IMG/VR virus record: IMGVR_UViG_3300010273_000008
Coordinates: 1 to 32,590 of that record
Direction: 5' to 3' (one strand)
Length of the DNA: 32,590 bases
Source: a virus
Lineage: Duplodnaviria; Caudoviricetes
Positions 2,011-18,612 of the stretch are shown here, piece after piece. Both the position numbers and the translations under genes were made by a program. Positions within the stretch are counted from its first letter, which is position 1; each line of letters begins with the position of its first letter. The notes beneath the pieces are model-generated. The model made no database searches. It saw only the letters and a list, made by a program, of their open reading frames with translations, and was not told the DNA's origin.

Positions 2011-2018
2011 AGATAAAC

Positions 2019-2776: not shown

Positions 2777-3376
2777 TTACAGATTCCTGTTATATTTTAC
2801 TGGATTTCTTAATTTATAGTCTACATCTTGCCAATATTTGCTGTTATACGGTTCACCAGTTAGCCAAGTGAATATTGCTGTTATTTCATCTAAAGCAGTA
2901 TATTGTACATAAGCTGTTTTGTTGTTGTGTACATATTGTATAGATTTAGGTTTAACCTTACATTGTTCTGCTAATATATTGTTTACTGATTGAATCAATA
3001 TATAATTACCATATAGTCTTAACCTAAGCCTATAGTATTTCTCTTTATTTTTGCTAAAATTATTGTATGTTGTGCAATAATCTAAATAAGAATGTATTTC
3101 AAAATATGCTCTCATAAAATCTTTATAATCATCGAGCATAGGAATATCTCTTTGTTCTGAATTTCTTTCTGTCCATCCTGGCAAATCATCTGGAGTAATA
3201 GACGATGTTTTCAAAACATATTGCACCTTTCCACTTGTGCCAAGTTGCTCATATATACTGTTATTGCAATATTTTTGTATTTGCTCAAGAAAATATTTGT
3301 CTTGATGCCTAAATACAAATCTGTTATCTTGAAAACTGCCTATATTCCAAATGATACCCAATGCATAGTTATCCAT
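2777..3376 (-). CDS. degenerate LAGLIDADG (DOD) endonuclease-fold protein
   Basis: Two helix motifs YALGIIWNIGSF and FMRAYFEIHSYL resemble YxLGxxxADG and FxRGxFDGDG but lack the acidic catalytic residues. Confidence 0.55.
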   Translation of the reverse strand: MDNYALGIIWNIGSFQDNRFVFRHQDKYFLEQIQKYCNNSIYEQLGTSGKVQYVLKTSSITPDDLPGWTERNSEQRDIPMLDDYKDFMRAYFEIHSYLDYCTTYNNFSKNKEKYYRLRLRLYGNYILIQSVNNILAEQCKVKPKSIQYVHNNKTAYVQYTALDEITAIFTWLTGEPYNSKYWQDVDYKLRNPVKYNRNL

Positions 3377-3419
3377 AGATTATATTGTACCATAATTCTC
3401 TTGAATTTTCTCTACTAAT

Positions 3420-4304
3420 TTATTTACGTATCTCATATAATATTCTGTTATGCTCTATAGCTTCTTCTTTTCTACCTAGCATTTCAGCTACACCAACTGA
3501 AACACCTTGCATTTTATTAGACATTCTGTTATTGAAATCGTCTTCAATCCATTTTAGCAAATCAATATTTTTATTCTTTATTTCTTGTACTGCATCATCT
3601 ATTCTGGATATAGAACATATTGGATATACATATTCATTTATTTGAACATAGGCTTTATCATAATCTTGAGTCTTGTTTTTTATCGCATAAAACTTATATC
3701 CATCTACTTCTTTCAGAAACGTCATTCGTTTACGCTGTATTCCATCACTATGAACGCATTTACCTAATATGTTATTTTTATTCTGCTCTTTTTTCTCTTT
3801 GCTTTTTTGTTTCTGTTCTGTTATATAATAATTATAATCAATAGCATTGTTTATATCTTCTGGTTTAACTTTTACTCCACACACTAAACCAACAATATTA
3901 TTTTCTTTATCATATATTACAAGCGGAGCATACTTTGAGGCCTTTGTATCATAATATAATTTACACTTTAATGATGTAAAGAAATTATAATATTCTTCTC
4001 TAATTGCAATTTCATTACTGTTAATTACTATATTATATTTTTCACCACTTGAAGAAACAAAATTTATATTAATAGACTTAGGAATGTATTCTTCAACATC
4101 CATGTCAGGCTCTCTTTTTATTATATCATTCAATATATTAACCACGCTTTTTGCCAATTGTTCATTTGTTTCAAAAGTATCAATAAATTCATTCTGCTTT
4201 TTAGTTAACAATGAACGTTTAATTATAAAGTGTGCATTTGAAACATATTCGCTGTTATGCACCTTTTTATCTTTGAAAAAATTTTTAAAATTGTATCCTG
4301 CCAT
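3420..4304 (-). CDS. hypothetical protein (294 aa)
   Basis: Long ORF with GGAGG RBS. Confidence 0.8.
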   Translation of the reverse strand: MAGYNFKNFFKDKKVHNSEYVSNAHFIIKRSLLTKKQNEFIDTFETNEQLAKSVVNILNDIIKREPDMDVEEYIPKSININFVSSSGEKYNIVINSNEIAIREEYYNFFTSLKCKLYYDTKASKYAPLVIYDKENNIVGLVCGVKVKPEDINNAIDYNYYITEQKQKSKEKKEQNKNNILGKCVHSDGIQRKRMTFLKEVDGYKFYAIKNKTQDYDKAYVQINEYVYPICSISRIDDAVQEIKNKNIDLLKWIEDDFNNRMSNKMQGVSVGVAEMLGRKEEAIEHNRILYEIRK

Positions 4305-4306
4305 TG

Positions 4307-4651
4307 TTATTCCTCCAATCCTAGTTTCTCAATTTGTTTTTTGTAGTACCATTTGCCACCCTTATACCCTTCTTTTAGGTATTCGGCTCTATGTGTTCTG
4401 TATATGAGCAAAAATCCTTTAATTTGTTCTTCCTGCTCTTGTGTTATTTCTTCTGGACTCTTACCATATACCATACTGTATATTTCATGTGCTTTTTGCG
4501 TGTCTATTGATAGCGAATATGGTATATGCTTTTTGCTTTTTCTTTTACCATTCGGATGAAAATTTGCATTATAATAATCCTGGTATGAGTGATTAGATAA
4601 TATATTATATATATCTATTTTAGCTTTTAATAGTGCTTGTTCTGTGAACAT
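4307..4651 (-). CDS. hypothetical protein
   Basis: ORF with GGAG RBS, co-oriented with neighbours. Confidence 0.75.
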   Translation of the reverse strand: MFTEQALLKAKIDIYNILSNHSYQDYYNANFHPNGKRKSKKHIPYSLSIDTQKAHEIYSMVYGKSPEEITQEQEEQIKGFLLIYRTHRAEYLKEGYKGGKWYYKKQIEKLGLEE

Positions 4652-4705
4652 TATATCAACTCCATTTTATATTTTTATTCAGGGAAGTTTTTTAGGCTTC
4701 CCCTG

Positions 4706-4909
4706 CTACCAATCCATTCCTTCGGCATCCTGCACTGCCGAAACCAAACCATCAAACAATTCGGATTCGCCTAATAATTGATAAAGACTAACTACTACTG
4801 AATATGGTACATCATATTCGTCTGCTAAATCTTGTAAGTATTCTTTTAAGCTGTTATAGCCGTTTTCCCTTAATGCTTCCATTGTTTCAGGTTTTAACAT
4901 TGTTATCAA
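4706..4909 (-). CDS. small acidic hypothetical protein
   Basis: ORF with AAGGAG RBS; probable start ATG at 4900. Confidence 0.75.
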   Translation of the reverse strand: MITMLKPETMEALRENGYNSLKEYLQDLADEYDVPYSVVVSLYQLLGESELFDGLVSAVQDAEGMDW

Positions 4910-4963
4910 CTCCTTTTGATTTTATGAATATATTGTAACAAAAATATGTCGTTATTTATTGTT

Positions 4964-5251
4964 TTATTTAATTTTAATCCTATATCTTTTGTCTATCCCA
5001 TATATAACTTCTTTAACTGTATAATTTTCTAGTATTAAAGCCAAATCTTTATACATTCTGGGAGATACTTCAATTTCTGCTCCATTTATTATTTGATTGT
5101 ACACTTGCTCTAATTTTTGCTGGTATTCCTGTTCAATAATATCACTGAATGTTAATTTATATCCTCTCATACTCTCTGTGCTATCTGCATAACTTTTTGC
5201 AAAATTAATTAACGCATTTACATTTTTTGTTGACACTGTTTGCCTTGACAT
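4964..5251 (-). CDS. hypothetical protein
   Basis: ORF with AAGGAG RBS. Confidence 0.75.
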   Translation of the reverse strand: MSRQTVSTKNVNALINFAKSYADSTESMRGYKLTFSDIIEQEYQQKLEQVYNQIINGAEIEVSPRMYKDLALILENYTVKEVIYGIDKRYRIKIK

Positions 5252-5296
5252 TTATATATCTCCTTTCTATTTACCATAAAATAATAATTTTATTGC

Positions 5297-5491
5297 TTAA
5301 AAATATGGTTTTTTACTAAATTCCTTCAACAAATCTTTTTCGCTAATTTCATGAGTTAACAACTTAACCATATCATCATCGGCTTCTTTTTTGTTGTCAT
5401 ATTCATTTAAAACCTTGCAAATCATATATTTACCCGTTGTTGTGCTGTGCATTATATAACATTTTTTTAACCCTTTGCTTATTATCTCCAT
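5297..5491 (-). CDS. hypothetical protein
   Basis: ORF with AGGAGG RBS, bounded by junction sites 5276 and 5516. Confidence 0.75.
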   Translation of the reverse strand: MEIISKGLKKCYIMHSTTTGKYMICKVLNEYDNKKEADDDMVKLLTHEISEKDLLKEFSKKPYF

Positions 5492-5533
5492 ATTAAAATC
5501 CTCCTTATAACTTGAATGAAAAATTGTTTTATT

Positions 5534-5836
5534 TTAACTACATTTCCTTTCAATAAACCAATCTATAGGCTTATTACATAGTTCAATATTACTCGGCTTA
5601 CTATTAAGATGTTTAATACTACCATCAAACATTGAATTACAATCTAAATCCAAATCATTGTAATTCTGTTCACATTCTAACCTTATAAATATAGCAAACA
5701 TATCGCCAGTACATTTTTTCCATATTTCTACTCTACTTTCAGGATACATTATAAGATATTCCTTTAAGTTTTGCCATTGTTTCTTTTCACAATCTATCGA
5801 ACATTTAATTCCACCAATTTGCAACCAATGAACCAT
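5534..5836 (-). CDS. hypothetical protein
   Basis: ORF with GGAGGTG RBS. Confidence 0.75.
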   Translation of the reverse strand: MVHWLQIGGIKCSIDCEKKQWQNLKEYLIMYPESRVEIWKKCTGDMFAIFIRLECEQNYNDLDLDCNSMFDGSIKHLNSKPSNIELCNKPIDWFIERKCS

Positions 5837-5851
5837 TTCACACCTCCAAAT

Positions 5852-6004
5852 TTATTTTATTTGTTTAATCCATGCTTTGGGAATCCATTGTTTTTTAGTA
5901 TACAATTTATAGTAACAATTACCATGATATTCTCGTATGTCAAGAATTTCATACCATACATCTCCTACCAATGCTAATTTGCCAATTTCATTTTTATTAA
6001 TCAT
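5852..6004 (-). CDS. small hypothetical protein (50 aa, not in ORF track)
   Basis: MINKNEIGKLALVGDVWYEILDIREYHG...; AAAGGA RBS. Confidence 0.65.
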   Translation of the reverse strand: MINKNEIGKLALVGDVWYEILDIREYHGNCYYKLYTKKQWIPKAWIKQIK

Positions 6005-6036
6005 AGTTACATCCTTTCTAAATAAAATTAATTGTT

Positions 6037-6210
6037 TTATATTGTTTTAACACAATCAGGATGACAACCCTCATATAACCCAAATTTCGTTTTTACATCT
6101 ACACGTTCAAAATCTTCGTTTACATCTCCTGCCCTGTATCCTATTATAACACCATCAATCCATTCATTTTCTTTTGTTTTGCTGTTATAAACCAATAATT
6201 TACATTTCAT
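6037..6210 (-). CDS. small hypothetical protein (57 aa, not in ORF track)
   Basis: MKCKLLVYNSKTKENEWIDGVIIGYRAGD...; AAGGAG RBS; stop inside junction site 6022. Confidence 0.7.
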   Translation of the reverse strand: MKCKLLVYNSKTKENEWIDGVIIGYRAGDVNEDFERVDVKTKFGLYEGCHPDCVKTI

Positions 6211-6241
6211 TTTTTAAACTCCTTTCAATCAAATTGTTATT

Positions 6242-6427
6242 TTAAACAAAAACCCAATAATATGGAGCATCAAACTTATTTAAAAACTCTTTTGATACTT
6301 CTCCTGCATAATTTTCAGTATCACACCATACTATTTTATATTTATCTTTTGTTTCATCAATTATTCTTGCTTCTCTGTAATAATCTCCCTTTCCATTTGG
6401 ATATACTAATATTTTTTTACCTATCAT
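6242..6427 (-). CDS. small hypothetical protein (beta-rich, possibly SH3/Tudor-like)
   Basis: AGGAGG RBS; stop inside junction site 6228. Confidence 0.7.
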   Translation of the reverse strand: MIGKKILVYPNGKGDYYREARIIDETKDKYKIVWCDTENYAGEVSKEFLNKFDAPYYWVFV

Positions 6428-6599
6428 TTTTATATACCTCCTGCAATTCCCAAATTTTAAACTCTAATTCTTGAAATTTATTTGCACAAATATCAATTGT
6501 ACTGTTTGAATAATCTAAACTGCTATAAACTTCTTGAGATAGTAATTTACATGTATTTACTATCTGCTCTAAAATATCTAAAATAGATTTATCGTTCAT
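6417..6599 (-). CDS. small hypothetical protein
   Basis: AGGAGG RBS. Confidence 0.7.
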   Translation of the reverse strand: MNDKSILDILEQIVNTCKLLSQEVYSSLDYSNSTIDICANKFQELEFKIWELQEVYKNDR

Positions 6600-6624
6600 T
6601 TCGTAATCCCCCTCCTATAAAGGA

Positions 6625-6969
6625 TTATTTTATGAAAAACTTATCTGTTCGTTTACAATATAATCTTTTGTCTGTTATACCTTTGCCGATAAATTTATTG
6701 TTTTGCTGATATTCTGACTTTTCACTAATATACATACTAGCTGAATATTTAAAATTTGTTGCAGCTTTAGAATGGTTTTTCCCTCCTAAATAACACATTA
6801 CTGCTTCTTTCAAAGAATCATATCCATAATTATATTCATTATTTGTCTTATTTCTAAATCTCCATCCATAATCTTCATCCTTCCAAAACATAACTTCTTC
6901 ATTTTCCCACATTCCTGACTTTGAGTTTTTTGTTAAAATAATTTCAGATGTTATTTCTTTATAATTCAT
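6625..6969 (-). CDS. hypothetical protein flanked by near-identical junction sites
   Basis: ORF between ataaaggattattttat (6617) and ataaaaggattattttat (6998). Confidence 0.75.
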   Translation of the reverse strand: MNYKEITSEIILTKNSKSGMWENEEVMFWKDEDYGWRFRNKTNNEYNYGYDSLKEAVMCYLGGKNHSKAATNFKYSASMYISEKSEYQQNNKFIGKGITDKRLYCKRTDKFFIK

Positions 6970-7011
6970 TATTACACCATCCTTCCTGTTATTTTGAATA
7001 AAAGGATTATT

Positions 7012-7200
7012 TTATATCAAATCAAGACTACTTTCATAAAAGGCTATTTCCTTGTCTAAAAATGCCCAATAACATATAACAAGCGTTTTCCCAGGAATTA
7101 GTTCTGTGTCTGTTATAATTTTTTTTACTATCCCTACATGTCCTTGAAAATCATCTACAGGATAATTTACTTCAACTCTATCGCCTATTTTAAAACCCAT
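7012..7200 (-). CDS. small SH3/KOW-like protein
   Basis: FKIGDRVEV..G.VG.V pattern; AGGAGG RBS. Confidence 0.65.
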   Translation of the reverse strand: MGFKIGDRVEVNYPVDDFQGHVGIVKKIITDTELIPGKTLVICYWAFLDKEIAFYESSLDLI

Positions 7201-7201
7201 A

Positions 7202-7393
7202 TTATAACCTCCTTATATTATAAATATCAATGTTTTTTTTTTTTATTTCTGTTATATTATTATTTTCTTTCCCAAATGCTTTCCTAAATTCTTCAATTAT
7301 ATCAGGTATCATCACTTTTGGTATTATGTAGAAAATTTCTGCTAGAAAAATTATTAATATTATCGTCCTTACAATTATATCCAAGTATTTCAT
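7202..7393 (-). CDS. small membrane protein
   Basis: One N-terminal hydrophobic helix; AGGAGG RBS. Confidence 0.7.
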   Translation of the reverse strand: MKYLDIIVRTIILIIFLAEIFYIIPKVMIPDIIEEFRKAFGKENNNITEIKKKNIDIYNIRRL

Positions 7394-7501
7394 CTTTATT
7401 ACCTCCTGTTATAGTTTCTTCCGGTTTTGGAATTTTACATCCACATTTACAACATATCCAATATTCGCTGAACGTATCAACGGCTTTATTGTGTTTTTAT
7501 C

Positions 7502-7577
7502 TGGTGACCCACCGGAGACTCGAACTCCGGACACCTTGATTAAAAGTCAAGTGCTCTACCGCCTGAGCTAGTGGGTC
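7502..7577 (-). tRNA. tRNA-Lys (UUU)
   Basis: GACCCAC acceptor stem, anticodon arm CTTGA-CTTTTAA-TCAAG, T loop GTTCGAG, encoded CCA. Confidence 0.97.
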
Positions 7578-7582
7578 ATATT

Positions 7583-7658
7583 TGGCTGGGATGGTAGGAC
7601 TCGAACCTACGAATGCTAGAGTCAAAGTCTAGTGCCTTACCCGCTTGGCTACATCCCA
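7583..7658 (-). tRNA. tRNA-Gln (UUG)
   Basis: TGGGATG acceptor stem, anticodon arm CTAGA-CTTTGAC-TCTAG, GGTTCGAG, encoded CCA. Confidence 0.97.
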
Positions 7659-7684
7659 CCATTAAAAAAGTAGTTATTTTATTT

Positions 7685-7828
7685 TTATACTCTACCCAAA
7701 AAACAATATCCTGCTTTATAACAAAATTCATATGCTTTTTGTCTTGCGTTTAAAAAATCTGTACTTTTTACTTCTAATATAAATATTTTGCCATCACTAT
7801 TATTTATCTTAAACTTAAATATTTCCAT
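7685..7828 (-). CDS. small hypothetical protein (47 aa, not in track)
   Basis: MEIFKFKINNSDGKIFILEVKS...; AGGAGG RBS. Confidence 0.65.
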   Translation of the reverse strand: MEIFKFKINNSDGKIFILEVKSTDFLNARQKAYEFCYKAGYCFLGRV

Positions 7829-7845
7829 TCTATTAACCTCCTATA

Positions 7846-8019
7846 TTAATCATTCCAATACTTATCAGCACATTTATTACAATATTGTTTACCGTTTATA
7901 ATGTTTACATTAGGCTGTTTTTTACCTTTTAGCCTGGAATATTTATCACCTAAATATTTTCCACATTCGCAACATTGATATTGTGTATTTGGAAAACTAC
8001 TTACTGATGAACCAATCAT
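7846..8019 (-). CDS. small zinc-finger protein (57 aa, not in track)
   Basis: CCECG...YCNKC; AAGGAGG RBS. Confidence 0.7.
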   Translation of the reverse strand: MIGSSVSSFPNTQYQCCECGKYLGDKYSRLKGKKQPNVNIINGKQYCNKCADKYWND

Positions 8020-8042
8020 ATTAATTATAACCTCCTTTTATA

Positions 8043-8387
8043 TTAATATTCTTCATTTCCAACATCCATACCTAAATAATACATATCCCTTTTGCCATAC
8101 CAAAAATGTTCTGATAAATCCTCTAACTTTTTTCTGCCTGCTTTTAGTGCTTCAAAATCATTTTTTATATCATCATTTGTATAATTCATATAACGATTAG
8201 TTGAAATAGTCAACCTAAATTCTCTTCTGCTTTGTATAAGCCCGTTTTTGCTTGTATTTTTTGCAATAGGATATGCTCCAATTGTTAAGCCATAAACATT
8301 TGGATATTCTGCTGTATTATGTTCACTCCAATCTTCCAGTTGAATTTTTGTTCCGTTCGGCATTATTGCACGCTCTAATATTTTCAT
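8043..8387 (-). CDS. hypothetical protein
   Basis: AAGGAGG RBS. Confidence 0.8.
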   Translation of the reverse strand: MKILERAIMPNGTKIQLEDWSEHNTAEYPNVYGLTIGAYPIAKNTSKNGLIQSRREFRLTISTNRYMNYTNDDIKNDFEALKAGRKKLEDLSEHFWYGKRDMYYLGMDVGNEEY

Positions 8388-8407
8388 TGTTACAACCTCC
8401 TTTTATA

Positions 8408-8713
8408 TTAACATTTACAAACTATTTGCATATTTCCAATTACACCATTTCTTTTATCATTTGTTAAATAAAAAGTTTCTTTTTTATATTCATATTTACA
8501 TGGTTTAATACTATTAATCAAGTCAATTATGTCATCCCATTTCTTACCACTTCGCCTTACTGTAAATTCTGCTGGATGATAACCATCGCTAAAATATCCA
8601 ACAAAATCAATATCATTATCAATAAATAAGTTAGCAATTTTACAAACAATGCTTGTCGTTATATCGCCATATACCTTGAATTTTAAACAACGTTCTGTTA
8701 TATAATTATTCAT
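8408..8713 (-). CDS. hypothetical protein
   Basis: AAGGAGG RBS. Confidence 0.75.
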   Translation of the reverse strand: MNNYITERCLKFKVYGDITTSIVCKIANLFIDNDIDFVGYFSDGYHPAEFTVRRSGKKWDDIIDLINSIKPCKYEYKKETFYLTNDKRNGVIGNMQIVCKC

Positions 8714-8743
8714 AAATTTAAACCTCCTTATATTGATATAAAA

Positions 8744-8920
8744 TTATGTTCTCGTTATTCTTACGTTCTTCTCAATCTCTTTTGCTTGTTTAATAAATAT
8801 CTTCTGTTTTGATTCAGGCAACATATCAAACATATCCCAAAACATTTCCATAAGATACATATCTCCAATACGCTCTGCAATTTCTTCTAGTTCTTTACGA
8901 TTCTTTTGTTTGTTTGTCAT
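8744..8920 (-). CDS. small hypothetical protein (58 aa, not in track)
   Basis: MTNKQKNRKELEEIAERIGDMYLMEMFWDMFDML...; AAGGAG RBS. Confidence 0.7.
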   Translation of the reverse strand: MTNKQKNRKELEEIAERIGDMYLMEMFWDMFDMLPESKQKIFIKQAKEIEKNVRITRT

Positions 8921-8939
8921 GCTGTTATACTCCTTTCTG

Positions 8940-9188
8940 TTATACTTTCTTTTTTATTGGATCATATGGTAACCTATACATACAATCTTCATTCCATTTA
9001 TACCCTGCCATTTCTGGATGCTGTTCCTCTATAATTTGTTTTACATTATTCCAATCTATAACATTACAATTGTTAAAAAGAATTCTTCTAAGAATTATTT
9101 CATTTGATTTATCTTCTTGAGGAAGTATATATTGACTAAGATATTCAAAAATCGTTAAATTATTTTTCTCGTTTAGCATTATAAACAC
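8940..9188 (-). CDS. hypothetical protein
   Basis: AAGGGAG RBS; probable start ATG at 9179. Confidence 0.7.
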   Translation of the reverse strand: MFIMLNEKNNLTIFEYLSQYILPQEDKSNEIILRRILFNNCNVIDWNNVKQIIEEQHPEMAGYKWNEDCMYRLPYDPIKKKV

Positions 9189-9240
9189 TCCCTTTCAATC
9201 AAATTATACTTTTATCTAATATTTGCTGTTATGGTTGTTA

Positions 9241-10104
9241 TTAATAACAATGTATTCTTTCGATTTTTCTCGTTCCATCTGGCATAGCATATTCTATTAT
9301 ATTATCAAAAATACAATCTAAATCTTTTTCGCTACATTCATCCATCCACTCACGAATTACTTGTGGTTCACCTGTTTCTTTTGCTTTTGCAAAAATAGCA
9401 TCAAGTTTCTTTTTATACGCTTCTCGTTTTTCTAAAATTGGCTGGAGAATATCAGATAATTTCATTTCAAAGCCAGTCACAATTGTTTCCTTAAACCCAT
9501 GATATTTTTGAACTTCGCTGTTATATTCATGGTTTAAAACTTCTCCAAGGTCTTCAATAGTACCTATAGATTTTTTAACTATTCTTTGGATATAATCACA
9601 AGGGTTAGACACAAACTCATTTTCACCCACGATTTTTTTAATCGCTCTTTCCATAATGTTTTGTTCTAATCCTTGCAAATCTTCAGGTAAATTTCTTATC
9701 CATGCTTGATAATGTGGAAAATCACAACCAACAATACTAAAATGAATATTTCTTTTGCCTTCTACCAATTCATTAACCACTTGATTTATATTACTTTCTC
9801 TTTCAATTTCAAATTGTTTTAAAAGACTTTTAACTTCTTTTAAAATTTCTTCAGGAAGTCCAACACCTCCAAAAGTTTTACCTTTTATCTTTACATTATA
9901 GAAAGTCATAGCGTTTTTATCTGGCAAAAATTCAGAATTATAGAAATAACCATCATTATCTTTATTCTCTTTTATACCTGGTATTTTATATTCCATAACT
10001 AACTTCCCATATTTATTAAGTTTGGGATTTCTGAATACAAATTTAATTCCCTGTTTTTCAAATTTTAAAGCTGCAACCATACCTTTAAATTCTTTATTAT
10101 CCAT
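9241..10104 (-). CDS. hypothetical phage protein (287 aa)
   Basis: Long ORF with AAGGAGG RBS; C-terminal Cys/His cluster. Confidence 0.85.
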   Translation of the reverse strand: MDNKEFKGMVAALKFEKQGIKFVFRNPKLNKYGKLVMEYKIPGIKENKDNDGYFYNSEFLPDKNAMTFYNVKIKGKTFGGVGLPEEILKEVKSLLKQFEIERESNINQVVNELVEGKRNIHFSIVGCDFPHYQAWIRNLPEDLQGLEQNIMERAIKKIVGENEFVSNPCDYIQRIVKKSIGTIEDLGEVLNHEYNSEVQKYHGFKETIVTGFEMKLSDILQPILEKREAYKKKLDAIFAKAKETGEPQVIREWMDECSEKDLDCIFDNIIEYAMPDGTRKIERIHCY

Positions 10105-10237
10105 GATAACCTCCTTGTTTTCTGTAAGTATTTTTATTCGCCCTTACAGTAGCGATATTTGTAGAATGAGGCTGTTTATTTTATACCGCCAACCTCATTA
10201 GAACGGCTGTTATTTGTTTTTCAATCAAAACCTTGTT

Positions 10238-10468: not shown

Positions 10469-10521
10469 ACTATCAACCGCCTTTCAAATTATTAATATAA
10501 TTTATTTACCTTACATATTAT

Positions 10522-10550
10522 ATTTTATCACGGACTTTTTACATTGTCAA
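10522..10550 (-). promoter_or_regulatory. sigmaA promoter
   Basis: TTGACA-17bp-TAAAAT with extended -10 TG. Confidence 0.7.
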
Positions 10551-10812
10551 TATTAATATTTCTCAAAAATTCTTTTATATCAAAATGAAACTCTACTGCT
10601 ATATTTAATGCCTGGTTAAACATCGGTATATTTTTCGTGCCTTTGTTAGTCCATGCATACACATTACATGGACTATAACCTAAAGATATTATATCGGCTG
10701 GTTTAATGTTGTAAATATCCATAATACGTTTTAGATTAGCCTTTATAACCTTACGGTCTGTGCTGTTATACTGCTGTATCAATTGCAAAAATTGTGCCTG
10801 TGTATATTCCAT
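10528..10812 (-). CDS. XRE/Cro-like helix-turn-helix protein
   Basis: NLKRIMDIYNIKPADII..SPCNVYAWTN..IP.FNQALNIA pattern. Confidence 0.6.
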   Translation of the reverse strand: MEYTQAQFLQLIQQYNSTDRKVIKANLKRIMDIYNIKPADIISLGYSPCNVYAWTNKGTKNIPMFNQALNIAVEFHFDIKEFLRNINIDNVKSP

Positions 10813-11611: not shown

Positions 11612-11746
11612 TTTCTTATGCCTCCTGTTATATTATTATTTCATAATTTCATTGTTGGATAGATGCACCTGCTAGAGCGTAAAACCCTAGCAGATACATC
11701 AATATAATTCTTCTGACTATTAATTGCTCCTGCATTTCCAATCCAC

Positions 11747-12919
11747 CTATATTGTGTTAGCATATGCATCCATTACATTGTCAGGAATATATGACGCGGC
11801 GAATTCTTCATCAAAACTGCTTAAAAATTCGTCAACATCTTCTGTGTTTACATCGTCAATTTCTACTTCTTCCTTTTTGGTATCTGTTTTATTTACCTTT
11901 TGATTTTTGCTATTTATCTGTACAAATCTGTTATATGCTTCTGTTATGGCTTGCGTCCTCTTCTTAATGCTTTCAGGTTTTGCAGATCCAGCACCTGCAA
12001 ATGCATTATAGGTTTCATCAATGCTTGCAGATCGCTTGCCTGCAAAGAAATACTTTACGAATTCGATAAAGGTTTCTAGCTGAATATTGTTATTCATAGA
12101 GCTTAGTGCTAATGGTACAAGGCTTAATAGATGGGTGCGTGTTACAATTCTTTTTGCTATCCTGGCATCCTGCTTCTCTCCTGTTGATATGATGTTCTGA
12201 TAGGTTTCTAATATTCTATCATATGCTTTAGTTAGTTCTGCGATTTGGTCATCTGTTACATCTGCATGTTCCATGAGTGGTCTAATAACCTTTGTTTCAA
12301 ATGATGGATTTTCAACGTTTAATAATGCCCATGATTTAATAACTAGTTCTTCATTCACGTATTTATTTAACATTTTTTCTGTTAATGCAGAAGTAAAAAG
12401 TGGATGGTTTGCAAGTTGCCGAATTTTTTCAATGCTTTTTGCACGAATGCGTGTAAGCTCAATCGAAGATAGAGGCTTTCCGTTGTTTAACCTAAAGAAA
12501 ATGGAATTAATTTCTTCATCGTCTAATTCTTCAAAGTAATAAATCGTTAATGAATAATCCTTAATCCTATCTTGAAATTCTTCGTCTAATTCATCAAAAG
12601 TTAATCCGTTAATATCTACCAATTCTCCTGATTCGGCTGTTACATCTGGTATATTTGCTAGCATAAACCTGTTATTCATAAAATCTGCAATTGTGGTGAT
12701 ACGCTGTCGCCCATCAAGCATTGAATATCTTTCGTTGTCTTTACTTGCAAACATCGGTGGTATGGGGAAATTCTCAATAAGACTGTGAATTAGTAATGAT
12801 TTCCTGTCATCGTCCCAACAAAAATTTCTCTGGATAGCATTGTCAAATACAATGTTACCCTTCTCCAGCATCTTAACAATCTGTTTGACTGTCCATGTAA
12901 TGTTAGCTTTTTTAATCAT
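11747..12919 (-). CDS. DUF262 (GmrSD N-terminal, ParB/Srx-like) domain protein with acidic tail
   Basis: IQRNFCW..RKSLLIHSLIENFPIPPMF..LDGRQRITTI..FFRLNNGKPLS motifs; no HNH/DUF1524 recognisable. Confidence 0.85.
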   Translation of the reverse strand: MIKKANITWTVKQIVKMLEKGNIVFDNAIQRNFCWDDDRKSLLIHSLIENFPIPPMFASKDNERYSMLDGRQRITTIADFMNNRFMLANIPDVTAESGELVDINGLTFDELDEEFQDRIKDYSLTIYYFEELDDEEINSIFFRLNNGKPLSSIELTRIRAKSIEKIRQLANHPLFTSALTEKMLNKYVNEELVIKSWALLNVENPSFETKVIRPLMEHADVTDDQIAELTKAYDRILETYQNIISTGEKQDARIAKRIVTRTHLLSLVPLALSSMNNNIQLETFIEFVKYFFAGKRSASIDETYNAFAGAGSAKPESIKKRTQAITEAYNRFVQINSKNQKVNKTDTKKEEVEIDDVNTEDVDEFLSSFDEEFAASYIPDNVMDAYANTI

Positions 12920-13009
12920 TATACATAACCTCCATAATATTATTTTTTGCCTGTTATGGCATGGGATAGGATTTTTAAGGCTGGAAAATCCTTCAAAAAC
13001 CTGTTATAC

Positions 13010-13285
13010 TCAATTATAAGCATTTAAAACAATTTCCATTTTGCAACAATCTATATTCAATGCTTCAAACCACACTCCCTCAATCTGAAAATCAAATATC
13101 CAATGCTTAGTTGTTATATCACTAAAATATATAGGCTTGTTAAATTGTTTAAGCTGGTTTATTATAGCATCATTAAGTAAATTATTGTTGTCTATTACTT
13201 TAAACATCCAAGTCCCTGCTGTTGTGCCTTCTAGTTGATAATTATTTGTTCCTTTTACTGTTATAACATTATCGGTTTTTATCAT
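13010..13285 (-). CDS. hypothetical protein
   Basis: AAGGAGG RBS. Confidence 0.75.
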   Translation of the reverse strand: MIKTDNVITVKGTNNYQLEGTTAGTWMFKVIDNNNLLNDAIINQLKQFNKPIYFSDITTKHWIFDFQIEGVWFEALNIDCCKMEIVLNAYN

Positions 13286-13466
13286 TGTTTTACCTCCTTT
13301 TTATATTAACTGTTTTATAATTTCCGTTCTGTTGAAATTCCTGCCCATGATCCAACCATGCACTTCAACTAAATATTTTTGTCCTGCTTTCATTTCCAGC
13401 ATTTTAAAACCTCCAATATTATATTGATATTTTGGGCATTTTAAGCGGATGCCCTAACCGCTGTTG

Positions 13467-13955
13467 TTATCTTTGTATGAAATTATATCCCCAGGTTGAC
13501 TTGTCTGTTATATCAACTATTTTATGGTAATATTTACCTGTCTTTTTTTCGTGTAAATATTGAGACGTATAAGAACCCGTTAAAAATTCAGACATACAAA
13601 ACATTTCAATATTGTTTATAGTACACCATTTAAGCGGAGGCAATATGTTTAACATTTCTTCGTATTTTTCCGCTGTTATTTCTGTTAATGGTTGGTTAAT
13701 GTAATAATCTTTTTGCTTTTGCAAAAATTCTTCAAATGTCATTATTTCATACTTCTTATTTTGTGCTTGTTTTAAGTAAGCCTTAAAGCTATCAACATCA
13801 GGGTAATTTTTACAATGGTTTTCCCATGTCTCAATATCTTCCTTATTTGTCCTAATAGCTTTTTGTAGCTTACGTTCTGCATCTTCTTGACTGTCTGCAA
13901 AATCGTAAATACTAAAATTTACAGTATCAGCTATACATAATTTGTTGTTATTCAT
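13467..13955 (-). CDS. DUF1419-like protein
   Basis: EITAEKYEEMLNILPPLKW..FCMSEFLTGSYTS motif; family recalled from memory, not searched. Confidence 0.55.
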   Translation of the reverse strand: MNNNKLCIADTVNFSIYDFADSQEDAERKLQKAIRTNKEDIETWENHCKNYPDVDSFKAYLKQAQNKKYEIMTFEEFLQKQKDYYINQPLTEITAEKYEEMLNILPPLKWCTINNIEMFCMSEFLTGSYTSQYLHEKKTGKYYHKIVDITDKSTWGYNFIQR

Positions 13956-13971
13956 TATAAAACCTCCTTTT

Positions 13972-14232
13972 TTATATTAATACTGTAAATAATTGGTTTA
14001 GCTTGTCCCAGTCGTTACATTCTGTTATGTCTTTTTTGTAAATATCTGGAGTAATATAACTATATGCTTTTAGGTATTCATTATAGCCTTTTACCCCTGC
14101 AATTGATAATATTTCACCTGTTATACCGTCAATAAATTGCTTTAATTCACCTTCCACATTACCCCATTTGATAGTTTTTGTATTTGTGTCAATTGTAAAA
14201 TCAAACTGATTTTTAAACCTGCATTTTAACAT
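13972..14232 (-). CDS. hypothetical protein
   Basis: GGGAGG RBS. Confidence 0.75.
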   Translation of the reverse strand: MLKCRFKNQFDFTIDTNTKTIKWGNVEGELKQFIDGITGEILSIAGVKGYNEYLKAYSYITPDIYKKDITECNDWDKLNQLFTVLI

Positions 14233-14611
14233 TTTAAAACCTCCCTTCTTACTTATTAATCATGTTACTTTTACAGAATTCAATTGCTGTCAATAAATTC
14301 TCTTCAGTTCCATATGCTTCATTATCAGATAAGAGATTATCCTCTTTAAAAATAATGTCTGTTATATAGTCGTTATCTCTAAAAACTGCAATATAAAATC
14401 TCATCATCTGATTATTAGAACCATGCAACCGTTATCGGCGGCAATTGATATTTTATATTCGCCAAACTCTAACGTCAAATTAATTAATGATCCAAATTCA
14501 TTAGCCATAAAAAATCCTGTCATTTTTTAAACCTCCTTTAGATTATAATTAATTTTACCATGATACTATAAGTACTGATTTTTAAACCTGCATTTTAACA
14601 TTTTAAAACCT
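14205..14611. repeat. 38-bp exact direct repeat (14205-14242 and 14574-14611)
   Basis: actgatttttaaacctgcattttaacattttaaaacct occurs twice; it is the 5' end of ORF 13972-14232. Confidence 0.9.
14249..14523 (-). pseudogene. frameshifted hypothetical gene
   Basis: AAGGAGG RBS; MTGFFMANEFG..ADNGC continues in another frame as GSNNQMMRFYIAVFRD..MINK*; 275 nt. Confidence 0.6.
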
Positions 14612-14644
14612 TCTAATTAACTTATATTAATTTTTTTGCAACCT

Positions 14645-14664
14645 TACGGGGATTATTCCCCGTA
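14645..14664 (-). terminator. hairpin, possible terminator
   Basis: tacgggga-ttat-tccccgta immediately after the stop of the upstream ORF. Confidence 0.45.
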
Positions 14665-14666
14665 TG

Positions 14667-14843
14667 TTATTTACTATTGTAAATTTCTTCCAATTTATCC
14701 CAATCTATTATGGCTGGTTCTCTTCCAATTTTTGTTAATGCCAATTCTCCGTCTTCGTCTTTCTTGAGCCAGTAGTAAATCTCCCTGGTAATAGCTATTT
14801 TTTTAGTCCCGTTTTTGTACTCTTGCAAAACTTTTACTTGCAT
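14667..14843 (-). CDS. small hypothetical protein
   Basis: AGGAGG RBS before ATG at 14843 (MQVKVLQEY...). Confidence 0.7.
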   Translation of the reverse strand: MQVKVLQEYKNGTKKIAITREIYYWLKKDEDGELALTKIGREPAIIDWDKLEEIYNSK

Positions 14844-14931
14844 TGTCAAACCTCCTAATATGTATTTTAGAGTGTTATTCACTCCATACAGCGCACTATT
14901 ATATTAATAATGCGCTGAAGCAACGAATAAC

Positions 14932-15150
14932 TTATGCTCTTTTAAGTAATGGTAATTCGGCTATTATTTCTTCTAACTCGTCGATCCTATCTTCCGTCAA
15001 TTCGCTATCCCAAAAAGCCATTAATTCTTGGCATATTTCATAAATCTGCCATAAATCAGCCTGGGATTCTTCCACTCCTAAAACGTTTACCGTTTCCAAT
15101 CCAGTTTCTACCAAGGTGTCAATAGTAATATACAACTTTCTGTAAGTCAT
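14932..15150 (-). CDS. small acidic hypothetical protein
   Basis: AAGGAGG RBS; own promoter. Confidence 0.75.
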   Translation of the reverse strand: MTYRKLYITIDTLVETGLETVNVLGVEESQADLWQIYEICQELMAFWDSELTEDRIDELEEIIAELPLLKRA

Positions 15151-15196
15151 TGTAAAACCTCCTTATTAATTTTTTCAATGTTCATTTTATATTATT

Positions 15197-15225
15197 ATTA
15201 TATCATATGTTTTTTATACTGTCAA
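15197..15225 (-). promoter_or_regulatory. repeated early sigmaA promoter
   Basis: TTGACA-17bp-TATAAT, extended TG, AT-rich UP element. Confidence 0.85.
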
Positions 15226-15266
15226 TACTATTTTTCAAAAATTTTTAAGTTTTTCATTGAATAAAA

Positions 15267-15461
15267 CTAACATTTTATTCCATTTTCTTGAAAAAAATTT
15301 AACAAGTCTTGTAATTCAGGAAATATATTTTTATATCTTCTTAATGTCCATCCCTTCCCCTTTAATTGACGAATAATAAAACTGTTCTCTTTATCAGAAA
15401 ATTGCTCTTTAAGATTTTTAATGTCTTGGCGTAATGTCTCATAATCATATACTTTTTTCAT
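15267..15461 (-). CDS. small hypothetical protein
   Basis: GGAAGGA RBS before ATG at 15461; stop inside junction site 15261. Confidence 0.7.
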   Translation of the reverse strand: MKKVYDYETLRQDIKNLKEQFSDKENSFIIRQLKGKGWTLRRYKNIFPELQDLLNFFQENGIKC

Positions 15462-15560
15462 AACATCATCCTTCCCATAAAATACCATCCTATAAAAAAT
15501 AGGTTGAGCGGAAGGCTGCTGTTATGCAGCCCGCCGGAATTCTCGGCTGTCTCCCTAGCC

Positions 15561-15719
15561 CTATTTTTCGCAATAATAATATTGTCCTGTTTTTTCGCTG
15601 TAATAAATTGGCTTATTAAAATTAAAAGGCACAACCTCGGCATCTCTTGGTAAACAATTAACTTCTTTTTTCTCGAATAATTTTTCCGTACCTGTAAAAG
15701 TTAATTCATAGATTTTCAT
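15561..15719 (-). CDS. small hypothetical protein (52 aa, not in track)
   Basis: MKIYELTFTGTEKLFEKKEVNCLPRDAEVV...; GGAGG RBS and own promoter. Confidence 0.7.
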   Translation of the reverse strand: MKIYELTFTGTEKLFEKKEVNCLPRDAEVVPFNFNKPIYYSEKTGQYYYCEK

Positions 15720-15750
15720 TCTTTTTTACCTCCATTTATTTTATATTTTT

Positions 15751-15779
15751 ATTTTAACATATATTTTTTATACTGTCAA
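15751..15779 (-). promoter_or_regulatory. repeated early sigmaA promoter
   Basis: TTGACA-17bp-TAAAAT. Confidence 0.8.
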
Positions 15780-15817
15780 TACTAATTTTCAAAAAATTTT
15801 AAGATAAAAGCAAAATT

Positions 15818-16042
15818 TCATTTATTCTTTTCTATAATATAAATACTTCTATATGGATAATATTCTGTTCTCTTGTTGATAGTATATTGAGGATATTTAT
15901 ATAGTCTTGCAATGTCCATTTCTAAGGCTGTTTTTGTTGAATATAGCGTTAATTCTATTGTATTTTTATCTATCTTTTTAAAATAGTATTCTTTTGTTTT
16001 AGGCTTATATAATTTTGCCTTAATCTCTGTAATTGTTAACAT
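15818..16042 (-). CDS. small basic hypothetical protein
   Basis: AGGAGG RBS; bounded by junction sites 15804 and 16066. Confidence 0.75.
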   Translation of the reverse strand: MLTITEIKAKLYKPKTKEYYFKKIDKNTIELTLYSTKTALEMDIARLYKYPQYTINKRTEYYPYRSIYIIEKNK

Positions 16043-16074
16043 ATTACCAACCTCCTGTTATTAAAATAAAAAGA

Positions 16075-16209
16075 CTATTTCATTAATTTACAATGTTTCT
16101 CAAAATAATCTGTTGTAACATATTTCCATCTGTTTTCTGTTATTGAGAATACCTCAACGCAAACAATTCCTTCTTTCACTACATAACAAAAATCTTTTAC
16201 TAATTCCAT
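16075..16209 (-). CDS. small hypothetical protein (44 aa, not in track)
   Basis: MELVKDFCYSVKEGIVCVEVFS...; AGGAGG RBS; bounded by sites 16066 and 16231. Confidence 0.7.
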   Translation of the reverse strand: MELVKDFCYVVKEGIVCVEVFSITENRWKYVTTDYFEKHCKLMK

Positions 16210-16247
16210 TGTAATCCCTCCTGTTATAGGATAAAATACCAGTTTTA

Positions 16248-16424
16248 TTAATAATACCTATGAAATAATTTCCAATACAATTCATCTAAACTATCATACG
16301 AACCCTTGGCACGGAGAAACATTTCTTTGACTTGAGGATTTTCTGAACCTCTGAAATAATCCATTTCTTTAGAATATTTTTCAAGCTGAGTTTCAAGATA
16401 TTGTTTTAATTCGGATTTTTTCAT
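16248..16424 (-). CDS. small hypothetical protein (58 aa, not in track)
   Basis: MKKSELKQYLETQLEKYSKEMDYF...; AAGGAGG RBS; bounded by sites 16231 and 16507. Confidence 0.75.
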   Translation of the reverse strand: MKKSELKQYLETQLEKYSKEMDYFRGSENPQVKEMFLRAKGSYDSLDELYWKLFHRYY

Positions 16425-16455
16425 TTTTTAATACCTCCTTAGATTTTATATTATT

Positions 16456-16483
16456 ATTATATCATATATTTTTATACTGTCAA
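16456..16483 (-). promoter_or_regulatory. repeated early sigmaA promoter
   Basis: TTGACA-16bp-TATAAT, extended TG. Confidence 0.8.
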
Positions 16484-16624
16484 TACTAATTTTAAAAATT
16501 GTTATGATAAAATCAAGTATTTATCGAATGTTATATTTACTCTTTTCTGTTATTTTTTGGATTTTTAATTATATGCTGTTATATATTTACAGTTATATAA
16601 TAAATTTTATATATAAAAACAGGC

Positions 16625-16647
16625 AAAAAAAGAGGCTCTAAGCCTCT
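16625..16647 (-). terminator. intrinsic terminator
   Basis: agaggc/gcctct hairpin followed by U-run on minus strand. Confidence 0.75.
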
Positions 16648-16668
16648 GTTATATTTGACTTACTTACT

Positions 16669-16887
16669 TTATATAGACAGTCTGATTGTGTTACCATTTC
16701 CGTCTTCCCAGCCGTCTACATCTGCCCCTGCGTCAAGATCTCTGATGATGGCATGCATATCGTCAATAGTTGCCGGGTAAATTGTACATATAAAATGTCC
16801 GTTATCAAGTATGATGTCAAATGCATGCAGGTCAAAATCAAAATGCTTCTCACATACCTTGTAACCGTTTCTTAACCAAGTTTTCAT
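16669..16887 (-). CDS. small hypothetical protein
   Basis: GGAGG RBS before ATG at 16887 (MKTWLRNG...). Confidence 0.75.
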   Translation of the reverse strand: MKTWLRNGYKVCEKHFDFDLHAFDIILDNGHFICTIYPATIDDMHAIIRDLDAGADVDGWEDGNGNTIRLSI

Positions 16888-16921
16888 GTTCTCAACCTCC
16901 ATATATTTATTTTATACTTAT

Positions 16922-16949
16922 ATTATATCATATATTTTTATATTGTCAA
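16922..16949 (-). promoter_or_regulatory. repeated early sigmaA promoter; LexA-like box AAAC-ATAT-GTTC upstream at 16985-16996
   Basis: TTGACA-16bp-TATAAT, extended TG. Confidence 0.75.
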
Positions 16950-17055
16950 TAGTAATTTAAAAAAATTATATTGCTATTTTATAAAAACATATGTTCGGTA
17001 TATAAGCAAAAAAATAAAGCCTTTACAGGCTTTAGATGAAATACCAGTATTTATC

Positions 17056-17120
17056 GGCTGTTATAACTTATTAAGGCTGTTATAACTTATCATAGCTGTT
17101 ATAATCAATTATGGCTGTCT
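17056..17120. repeat. 19-bp period tandem repeat built on GCTGTTATAA
   Basis: Cores at 17058, 17077, 17096 and a degenerate one at 17115. Confidence 0.85.
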
Positions 17121-17179
17121 CATTATTTTATATGTGCTTTATTGCTTTAATGCTTTACTGATTTAAAGTATAAAAACAT

Positions 17180-17206
17180 AAAAAAAAGAGGCTTTAAGCC
17201 TCTTTA
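17180..17206 (-). terminator. intrinsic terminator
   Basis: aaagaggc/gcctcttt hairpin plus U-run; near copy of the terminator at 16625. Confidence 0.75.
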
Positions 17207-17695
17207 AACAATAGCCAATGCGGTATTAATTGCTATGCTCACCCCTTCCTGTGACATTTCCTTTTTTATCCAATTTGCCAACTGTATAAAATTGTAAATG
17301 TCATCTTCTGTTATTGTTTCCGCATCAACGGTAATTATGGTAATATCTTCCTTGACTATATCATTTTTGTCATTACTCCACCAACTGCCTACTGTGTCAT
17401 AGTATCTTATATTATTATTGTTATACAAACTTTCTATTTTATTATAACAATAATTTACATAATATCTATTATTTATATGCTTGTCAATATTTACAGTAGA
17501 TGGTATAAATAAACTAATATTGTTTTTGTCCTTATTTATTCTTATATATTCTCCGCCTGCTATGTTACTATATATCCCATCCTCAAACTGAGTTGCCCCT
17601 CCATAAAGCCTGGCGCCTTCTTCAAGTGATGCGACTTTTTTTCTGTCGCTTAAGAAAAAGCTAAAATGGAATTTTTTGGAATCAATTTTTACCAT
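17204..17695 (-). CDS. hypothetical protein, first gene of the left arm
   Basis: GGGAGG RBS; promoter at 17731-17759. Confidence 0.8.
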   Translation of the reverse strand: MVKIDSKKFHFSFFLSDRKKVASLEEGARLYGGATQFEDGIYSNIAGGEYIRINKDKNNISLFIPSTVNIDKHINNRYYVNYCYNKIESLYNNNNIRYYDTVGSWWSNDKNDIVKEDITIITVDAETITEDDIYNFIQLANWIKKEMSQEGVSIAINTALAIV

Positions 17696-17730
17696 TTTAA
17701 GACCTCCCCTGATTATTATTTTATATTAAT

Positions 17731-17759
17731 ATTTTATCGTCTTATATTAATATTGTCAA
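17731..17759 (-). promoter_or_regulatory. sigmaA promoter
   Basis: TTGACA-17bp-TAAAAT. Confidence 0.75.
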
Positions 17760-17798
17760 TAGTAATTTTTAATTTTATATTGCAATTTTATTAACAAT

Positions 17799-17850
17799 TT
17801 ATCCACATTATCCACAGGTAAATATTAAGTTATCCACAGAGTTATCCACA
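17799..17850 (+). promoter_or_regulatory. cluster of four perfect DnaA boxes
   Basis: TTATCCACA at 17799, 17808, 17830, 17842, all in the same orientation. Confidence 0.9.
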
Positions 17851-18612
17851 GGTAAACTCTTTACCCATTCCCGCCCTGTTATTTCGATTGTTAACCTATT
17901 CGTCAACTAAAGTTAACAATTAAGTTAACAATATATTGCCAATTCTTCCCATATTCTTATTCATGGTACAATATCCCATATATACTACTATTTGATGATA
18001 TGCTGTCTACTTATATTCTGCATCTATATTATACTTATAGACAGATTATTGCATCCTATATCCTTATATCCTGCTTTATTACTGCATTCCTGGTTTATTC
18101 ATTATTCCTTATATAATTATTATTATATAAGCAATATTACTTAAATCCGGTATGTTTACAAGTTTTTGGTTACTTTTTAGCCAGCAAGTCAGGGTAGCAC
18201 TTTCATCCATCTACCCACAAAATTTTTACCGATTCAATCCATTTTCTTACAAATCCACTAAAAAATCAATCGTACATCTATCGAACAAATCTAGTGTTCA
18301 TGCATATTTCACAACATCCCAAATATTTCAATTTTACATTTATATATCTATGCCATAATCCTTCAAACATAGTAATATCAATATTTCTAAAGGTTTAATG
18401 TTTAGTATTTGTCGAATGTATTTTTTAGTATTCGTACTAAATCATATAAAATACACTTCAAACTATTATAAAATAAGCATTTATAGACAACTAACACAGT
18501 AAGGTTACGATACATAATATTAATATAAAAAATTTTCATTTTCCTATTGACTATCATAATAAAAGATAGTAATATATTATTGAAGAAAACAACTAACAAA
18601 GGAGATGTTTAT

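Follow-up and report, generated by a model that had tools for sequence, protein, structure and literature searches.

Which step in the life of a phage selects for one short word, always in the same orientation, over a single domain of its genome? The question is raised by a viral stretch of 32,590 nt (28.5% GC; IMG/VR record IMGVR_UViG_3300010273_000008), here called the window, whose left arm is strewn with the word ATAACAG in gene sense, that is, CTGTTAT on the plus strand. Judged by its genes, the window is part of an SPbeta-like (YonO-family) temperate phage: it contains the single-chain RNA polymerase YonO, a terminase, a divergent early block of small genes and the 5' end of yopQ, and in the close relative L001 yopR follows. 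A preliminary description of the window had proposed that the words are a polar cis-signal coating one genome domain, and had named a range of possible readers, from DNA-binding proteins to RNases.

A one-strand word array in the early genes

Counting agreed closely with the preliminary description. Exactly 52 copies of CTGTTAT lie on the plus strand between 2787 and 17876, where about 52 had been reported, and the word is absent from 1-2780, as had been stated; no opposite-orientation copy was counted in the left arm of the window. All left-arm genes are on the minus strand, so that the 52 copies read ATAACAG in gene sense. The right arm is indeed nearly free of the word, although it contains two sense copies (22615 and 30806) and not the single one that had been noticed. 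The block total compares with 6.7 copies expected under a second-order Markov model, in keeping with the earlier estimate of only a few. On a slightly fuller gene list, 31 copies are wholly inside genes, 20 are intergenic and one crosses a boundary; the intergenic copies fall in 3,097 bp of DNA, for which a first-order Markov model expects 0.43. The in-gene copies had been said to occupy different reading frames, and they split 15 and 16 over the two usable ones, the third reading frame of the word being an in-frame TAA stop. Copies adjoin Shine-Dalgarno (SD) sequences at 7406, 11625, 16055 and 16221, exactly as described, and the reported 19-bp tandem proved to be three exact words (Table 1).

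Codon-preserving shuffling had been set beforehand as the check on this enrichment, and the enrichment survived it: left-arm genes hold 29 copies, whereas 1000 synonymous-codon shuffles averaged 7.7 and never exceeded 15. Equal frequency throughout the genome or in the host, which would have spoken against a special role, was not found; right-arm genes have two copies against 1.7 expected, and two sampled Clostridia chromosomes show no over-representation. The 21 one-mismatch variants are near expectation within the block and the word is therefore sharp; its flanks are weak, with T before it in 30/52 copies and T after it in only two. Indeed, the array has left its mark on the proteins. Tripeptides that permit the word are in excess in the window's block proteins (18 where 4.7 were expected, and 21 where 6.2 were), and the word is present at 31 of the 39 places that could code for it; the block proteins have changed residues to host the word. 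Individual sites turn over, one of five aligned sites being intact in L001, six of ten in G015 and four of six in L081. Given the share of chances used, the tripeptide excess and the single intact site in L001, copy density counts for more than exact position. The ATAACAG array is thus confirmed as real and strongly selected.

We then have its distribution in 21 related records longer than 95 kb, each analysed whole; they were gathered via MazF, DUF262, YonO and YopQ searches and are not a random sample. A significant one-strand block is present in nine (G001, G002, G004, G011, G012, G013, G014, and the phages Perkons and GVE3), and the partial record G015 is also positive. The other 12 long records, including SPbeta, PMBT24 and TR-TP2, have no significant block; G003 and G005 are borderline, and G020 may fall outside the family. 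SPbeta has 11 and 10 copies on its two strands. Neither of two 35-kb DUF262 elements has a block, and for five further cultured phages a pattern listing alone gave no clear block: CB473P1, 0305phi8-36, ES-S-0107-01, phi3T and PhiSepi-HH3, in the last of which seven of 15 minus copies fall in 67-82 kb. The place of the block is always the interval from the early/late divergence to the yopQ/yopR module, where it covers unrelated genes, and it is conserved over a range of hosts that extends from Bacilli to Clostridia. In G001 the count is likewise 52, with the flank bias seen in the window; G014 favours AAACAG, and G002 adds AGAACAG. A scan for arrays in unrelated viruses, covering 19 of 64 parts, gave 119 loci with two words 19 bp apart, of which the richest had nine copies in a local tandem and the next seven copies in 1 kb of a relative of the SPbeta-like family. 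A search for a host with a positive prophage returned a YonO match in 1/401 Bacillota genomes and a YopR match in 0/112.

Perkons supplies the geometry. Its 27 block copies span 5,396-22,590, with three more on that strand in the remaining 114 kb, and the first 5.3 kb are free of block-orientation copies. PhageTerm located a terminal repeat of 264 bp (PMC13245101), which lies 2.1 kb upstream of YonO, and the block is 5-23 kb inside the physical genome end. In both Perkons (L258 6760-7854) and GVE3 (L440 7165-7800) a DNA polymerase III beta-clamp gene lies within the word block.

Avoidance of the word outside the block

Genes outside the block were divided into middle genes, on the block strand, and late genes, on the opposite strand, and each orientation of the word was compared with its synonymous-codon expectation in six pooled strong carriers (G001, G011, G012, G013, G015 and Perkons). 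The block orientation is strongly depleted (9 vs 49.6 expected), and the opposite orientation is neutral (58 vs 58.9). The loss is found both in middle sense (7 vs 31.1), a class that may be biased by block limits drawn after the counts were seen, and in late antisense (2 vs 18.4), which is free of that bias; middle antisense (14 vs 19.9) and late sense (44 vs 39.0) make up the neutral orientation. All four classes are neutral in six non-carriers, with 23 vs 26.2 for middle sense and 33 vs 26.6 for late antisense, and no substitute word with the block-plus-purge pattern stood out in non-carriers, whose top words were promoter parts and A/T runs. Among 210 letter permutations, ATAACAG has the lowest ratio, 0.18 against a median of 0.97.

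The purge extends to near-matches. Depletion, with ratios of 0.30-0.65, is seen for ATAACAA, ATAACAC, ATAACAT and TTAACAG, again in the block orientation alone. With near-matches included, the block orientation in five genomes amounts to 72 vs 163.7 and 49 vs 155.2 in the two segments, and the other orientation to 179 vs 191.3 and 186 vs 178.3; both segments show the loss in each of the five. By genome tenths counted from the divergence, the ratio for ATAACA runs 2.83, 1.51, 0.73, 0.46, 0.33, 0.18, 0.48, 0.39, 0.30 and 0.20, while the other orientation stays steady at 0.8-1.25. The late arm of the window itself has TGTTAT in gene sense only twice against 8.0 expected (0/1000 shuffles as low), and ATAACA in gene sense seven times against 6.8.

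Because the word is lost from same-strand middle genes and from late antisense alike, selection acts on its orientation within the genome rather than on mRNA sense. With a local binder or an RNA reader, each arm would instead be treated according to the direction of its genes; the result argues against RNA tags, MazF sites and stoperators. The RNA-level mechanisms of the preliminary description, an antitermination tag or timed endonucleolytic decay, are not supported, late mRNA sense being neutral and late antisense purged, and a non-directional binding or spreading site leaves the one-orientation purge unexplained. The polar cis-signal itself is supported, and of the mechanism classes then put forward, a DNA entry or translocation signal is the one that survives.

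Candidate readers of the word

The simplest cause of an excess in one zone and a purge elsewhere would be machinery with a fixed starting point and a single direction of travel over the entire genome. The candidates are the packaging and ejection of DNA, replication in one direction, and a helicase-nuclease loaded at an end. That the reader is some such whole-genome, one-direction DNA tracker we consider highly probable. Our favoured identification, tentative at a probability of about 0.35, is the packaging machine, with ATAACAG as a low-efficiency stop or arming word near the genome end. Packaging in SPbeta-like phages is reported to open between yonR and yonP and to run counter-clockwise, a fixed block of ~250 bp marking its start (10.1101/2021.11.22.469490), and short terminal repeats are described in Tyroviruses (PMC9703825). 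On the SPbeta map, packaging would head towards yonO, and the early block would be packed last. Travelling through the word-free middle and late regions first, the motor would reach the zone only a little before the genome ends. Each copy would catch it with low probability, many copies would make capture almost certain, and a stray earlier copy would halt packaging too soon; once captured, the motor would be slowed, or armed for the cut that ends packaging at the short terminal repeat. Such low-probability, irreversible capture would account for the many zone copies, for the loss of near-matches on the earlier path and for the lack of words in the last 5 kb of Perkons, which fits a tracker that comes from the far side and has been captured before it gets there. 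The Perkons positions, the purge and the packaging direction from the literature would be compatible with a polar signal that the motor meets before the cut and that is absent from its earlier path.

Several points weigh against the packaging machine as reader. As a rule, packaging motors hold on to the DNA backbone and do not read bases. For the window itself, the genome end is presumed from its relatives only. In five weaker records pooled (G002, G003, G004, G005 and G014, of which three have a block that is significant) no purge is seen (31 vs 28.4 and 12 vs 15.9), and in GVE3, scored for the six-letter form, late antisense is depleted (6 vs 16.0) and middle sense shows no such loss (19 vs 22.3). 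Within the purged segments, gradients do not reach significance (p 0.05 and 0.26) and do not give the direction of travel. No protein family exclusive to carriers was found, and trees of 17 core proteins, among them large and small terminase, portal and capsid, never unite the carriers and place non-carriers beside them (FastTree, midpoint root, no formal clade test); this mosaicism would fit a host reader better. Finally, SPbeta, which lacks the word, is described as having almost no circular permutation (10.1101/2021.11.22.469490). A broader statement has slightly better than even odds in our view: in large SPbeta-like phages of Bacilli and Clostridia, the shared word would be a distributed one-way braking zone for DNA passing the virion, read in motion by the packaging or ejection machinery or by a host protein that is conserved and sits where the DNA enters, and these genomes of 130-170 kb would be shaped throughout, proteins included, for capture only 5-25 kb from one end.

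Among the other trackers, ejection is the chief competitor, possible though the odds are against it. Here the block would enter the cell first, and the words, read by a virion protein or a host membrane protein, or acting as programmed one-strand nicks, would slow or pause entry until the early anti-defence genes had been expressed; later stray copies would stall the second phase. The fixed geometry likewise accounts for enrichment and one-orientation purge, the Perkons block starts just inside the end with its first copy in an ArdA anti-restriction gene, and a host reader suits the mosaic trees. Four DnaA-box-like sites mark the block start in the window, and phage T5 is reported to enter in two steps with DnaA boxes at its stop region (10.1101/866236) and to carry one-strand nicks (PMC10644984). 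However, such clusters are found at the block start in only 3/21 mapped records, Perkons not among them, the T5 stop is one non-coding element rather than 50 scattered words, and the literature consulted yielded no report of two-step entry in SPbeta-like phages. Palindrome avoidance in the first 20 kb is no stronger than elsewhere (five carriers, five non-carriers), so that stronger restriction-site avoidance in first-entering DNA is not seen. A reversible ejection brake equals packaging for the zone copies and the near-match loss, and does better with a host reader. A Chi-like stop would act on a helicase-nuclease, either AddAB of the host or an enzyme of the phage, that enters at the block-side end left free by the packaging cut. 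Its geometry is that of phage LLS, where 20/23 Chi are in active orientation and clustered at the terminase-opened end (PMC12315714), and it too would suit mosaic trees through a host reader. We nevertheless think it improbable. The Chi-like site of the preliminary description fails the host-chromosome test in two sampled Clostridia chromosomes, which may not be the true hosts: the leading strand of G749 (28% GC, 220 kb) has 39 copies vs 30, ranking ~1,400-1,700 of 16,384 words, and G469 (180 kb) has 15 vs 12, no excess. Across 151 Bacillota genomes the ratio to the reversed word is at most ~3.5, and two high-ratio genomes have mixed strands at the listed places; moreover, Chi logic gives no cause for the downstream purge, and the first 5.3 kb of Perkons are left bare. 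Polar barriers are the classic cause of orientation-specific avoidance, and origin-like features adjoin the block in the window; both would suit a polar trap or brake on a phage fork that replicates in one direction only, from a start near the DnaA boxes and the RepL-like gene. This is more doubtful again, since two forks need the other orientation, which is neutral, to be purged in one arm, helicase, primase and polymerase trees do not unite the carriers, and third-position skews do not split carriers from non-carriers.

Readers bound to particular genes face the strand test as well. Oriented silencing sites for the YopQ/YopR (SroE/SroF) lysogeny module, working as stoperator-like elements or through a loaded clamp on the early block, are unlikely. 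YopQ, which has a DndB-like domain, occurs in 9/9 long carriers and 5/12 non-carriers (Fisher p 0.007, uncorrected, with six families tested and kin not independent), and the strong promoters lie in the block; yet a transcription roadblock predicts loss in late sense and a neutral late antisense, the opposite of what is found, the YopQ and YopR trees do not unite the carriers, and SPbeta has YopQ/YopR and no block, its repressor site SPBRE being a 15-bp promoter element (PMC10516654). The YopQ association, like that of a serine recombinase (7/9 carriers, 3/12 non-carriers; p 0.03), may simply mark an integrating lifestyle. An RNA tag, AUAACAG in early mRNA being cut by a phage MazF or another RNase or bound by a regulator, is very improbable. 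Block copies are all in mRNA sense, several at SD sequences, a solo MazF gene follows the last copy, middle-gene sense is purged, and transcripts of SPbeta-like phages are reported to be enriched for host MazF sites (10.1101/2023.04.27.537455). The late-antisense purge and the neutral late sense remain unexplained by it, though, and the Bacillota MazF site is given as UACAUA (10.64898/2026.08.06.743204). MazF is present in 8/9 carriers and 9/12 non-carriers, GVE3 having none above E 1e-20; on this co-occurrence count and the strand test, cutting of AUAACAG by a phage MazF was dropped. Least credible of all is a pause or terminator read by YonO as CTGTTAT, like the T7 class II signal TATCTGTT: late mRNA sense is depleted of CTGTTAT, and CTGTT is common to the word and the T7 signal (PMC9157156), but GVE3, which largely refutes the idea, and G004 carry the block with no YonO by profile search, and the carriers are spread over four YonO clades with non-carriers in each.

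Other candidates for the reader were rejected. The preliminary description had pointed to the window's DUF262 and helix-turn-helix (HTH) proteins. DUF262 is not needed, as it is absent from Perkons and GVE3, and only 6/37 loci around DUF262 relatives have at least 12 copies; the protein has no solved relative by sequence, and its predicted model (mean pLDDT [predicted local distance difference test] 79.6) resembles the N-terminal folds of BrxU, ParB and Noc. The HTH family occurs in only five records. Antisense extended -10 promoters would require a particular base two positions out, which is present in only 8/52 copies. Host Chi or FtsK-orienting polar sequences (KOPS) were rejected, as neither the two sampled Clostridia chromosomes nor the 151 Bacillota genomes gave such a signal, and AGCGG, the B. 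subtilis Chi and considered as SPbeta's equivalent word, is polar (22 vs 2 in 44 kb) but even, with no block. Avoidance of head-to-head sites of a type III or ISP restriction enzyme would, by reasoning only, explain the purge; it would leave open why there is a 7-fold excess and why distant hosts have one word in common. YonO, DUF262, MazF and host Chi are thus excluded as needed readers, and no protein's similarity tracks the presence of the word.

Genomic setting and known polar words

The right arm of the window carries genes for a Xer-like recombinase, YonO, PhoH and terminase, and the left arm small genes with repeated strong promoter matches, DUF262, a solo MazF, IS605 and the start of yopQ (Table 1). 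The TnpB of the IS605 element is closest to Clostridium plasmid copies (76%), which suggests a Clostridia host for the window phage. In 654-2602 the solo MazF gene occupies the place of the SPbeta arbitrium and sroABC genes, just before yopQ, with the second MazF 3' piece beyond IS605; MazF is similarly placed in many relatives. The RepL-like gene sits between recombinase and YonO and is absent from the close relative G015, whose YonO (35464-37872) is only ~30% identical to that of the window, though terminase (97%) and recombinase (91%) are close; the polymerase gene has been exchanged from one clade to another. The four matches to the DnaA-box-like TTATCCAC precede the first early promoter, and six such sites are seen in L081 and two each in G015 and G002. 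Motifs of the form CGAACATATGTT, which resemble LexA/DinR boxes, lie upstream of small genes at ~597-612 and 16985-16998. Between the open reading frames (ORFs) 7202-7393 and 7685-7828, the gap 7500-7640 yields tRNA-like text in one frame (ORF 7576-7731) and may hold a tRNA gene.

Table 1. Positions of the word array and other features in the window
Feature	Position	Strand	Remark
5' end of yopQ/sroE-like gene, DndB-like	1..234	-	only family in all 9 long carriers
IS605 with tnpB (898-2022), tnpA scrap and second MazF 3' piece (654-857)	654..2149	-	
Solo MazF/PemK gene with own promoter, just past last word	2222..2602	-	not the reader
Array of 52 ATAACAG words	2787..17882	-	all in sense of early small-gene block
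Small HTH protein	10528..10812	-	common to four Clostridia-type carriers only
DUF262/GmrSD_N protein (phrog_2598)	11747..12919	-	not required for word
Strong sigmaA-type promoter matches heading early block	15197..17759	-	-35 at 17759, 16949, 16483, 15779, 15225; also 10550, 2721
Tandem with 19-bp period	17057..17118	-	three exact words; densest spot of array
Four TTATCCAC matches, DnaA-box-like, at block start	17799..17850	.	
Late arm purged of block orientation	18000..32590	+	
Xer-like tyrosine recombinase at early/late divergence	18547..19458	+	
RepL-like winged-helix protein, lead only	19977..20513	+	
YonO-type single-chain RNA polymerase	22594..24912	+	not required for word
Probable small terminase (29894-30907) and large terminase (30882-window end)	29894..32588	+	candidate readers

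Other repeated words occur in further records. In G005 (L065), ATTACATA has 24 copies on one strand and a single one on the other, almost all of them immediately 5' to an SD sequence in the early block; it includes the Bacillota MazF site UACAUA, and these leaders may be a MazF-controlled set. The 35-kb DUF262-bearing gut elements, such as G024 (L117 4627-30138; also L115-L122), have one strand strewn with GGCAGCGG or GGCAGCAG along the entire genome, with counts of 27 vs 1 for G024. Both contain the B. subtilis-type Chi word and are candidates for the Chi of those elements' hosts. In L008, L009, L020, L045, L056 and L068, GGTTAGCA is followed ~16 bases on by CTGTAAT, in 8-20 one-strand copies after T-rich runs, which looks like a repeated non-sigmaA promoter.

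How does ATAACAG compare with described polar words? Lambda cosQ, also short and polar, is a single site beside the final cut and works on terminase during translocation, ahead of that cut; ATAACAG has ~25-50 copies over 15-20 kb, several kb from the end (in Perkons, 27 copies at 5.4-22.6 kb). The end-clustered Chi of the lambdoid phages LLS and MD8 (PMC12315714) is likewise a short asymmetric word in one orientation near the free end left by the packaging cut, and the Perkons positions, with the packaging direction from the literature, place ATAACAG in one orientation near the end that terminase leaves free. Chi, as described there, is abundant and skewed in the host, whereas ATAACAG is neither in the two sampled chromosomes; Chi is not purged from the rest of the phage, and the Perkons zone begins ~5 kb in from the end. 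Cluster A mycobacteriophages have stoperators (PMC9283540), which are also many asymmetric one-orientation sites in temperate phages, but these are 13 bp, intergenic and along transcription, whereas ATAACAG is 7 bp, mostly intragenic (31/52) and against transcription in the late arm. The T5 injection stop and nicks (10.1101/866236, PMC10644984) would share a cis-signal near the first-entering end, host-takeover-type small genes and nearby DnaA-box-like sites, of which clusters occur in the window (four sites), G015 and G002 (pairs) and no other carriers; the T5 stop is one non-coding structured region, and neither a word array nor a one-orientation genome-wide purge was found described in those accounts. 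SPBRE, the MrpR/SroF operator of SPbeta (PMC10516654), is a repeated element of the same phage family near early promoters, but it is 15 bp long with about ten promoter sites, in a phage that lacks the ATAACAG block. The MazF sites UACAU/UACAUA of SPbeta and phi3T transcripts (10.1101/2023.04.27.537455; 10.64898/2026.08.06.743204) are a short enriched word with a MazF gene nearby; they act in mRNA sense, are a different word, and do not predict the late-antisense purge. For each known system, ATAACAG fails a defining test or that test is not decisive.

A full-text literature search on the word and phage gave only incidental matches among those listed, as judged by titles and abstracts, and the main text of the Perkons paper contains neither "ATAACAG" nor "motif" (PMC13245101). 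The present analysis contributes the four-class strand test with its controls, the near-match purge, the protein-level adaptation and the removal of YonO, DUF262, MazF and host Chi from the list of needed readers. Chi, KOPS, stoperators and cosQ are spread along a chromosome or act at a single site, whereas ATAACAG is selected for in one zone and against elsewhere in the same orientation, across different terminase, portal, helicase and polymerase clades. This pattern points to a sequence-reading step not yet described in packaging or DNA entry. Two cultured phages whose hosts are harmless, Perkons (Psychrobacillus) and GVE3 (Parageobacillus), carry the word, so that the question is directly testable; and for the engineering of large temperate phages, a misplaced word in an insert could be toxic.

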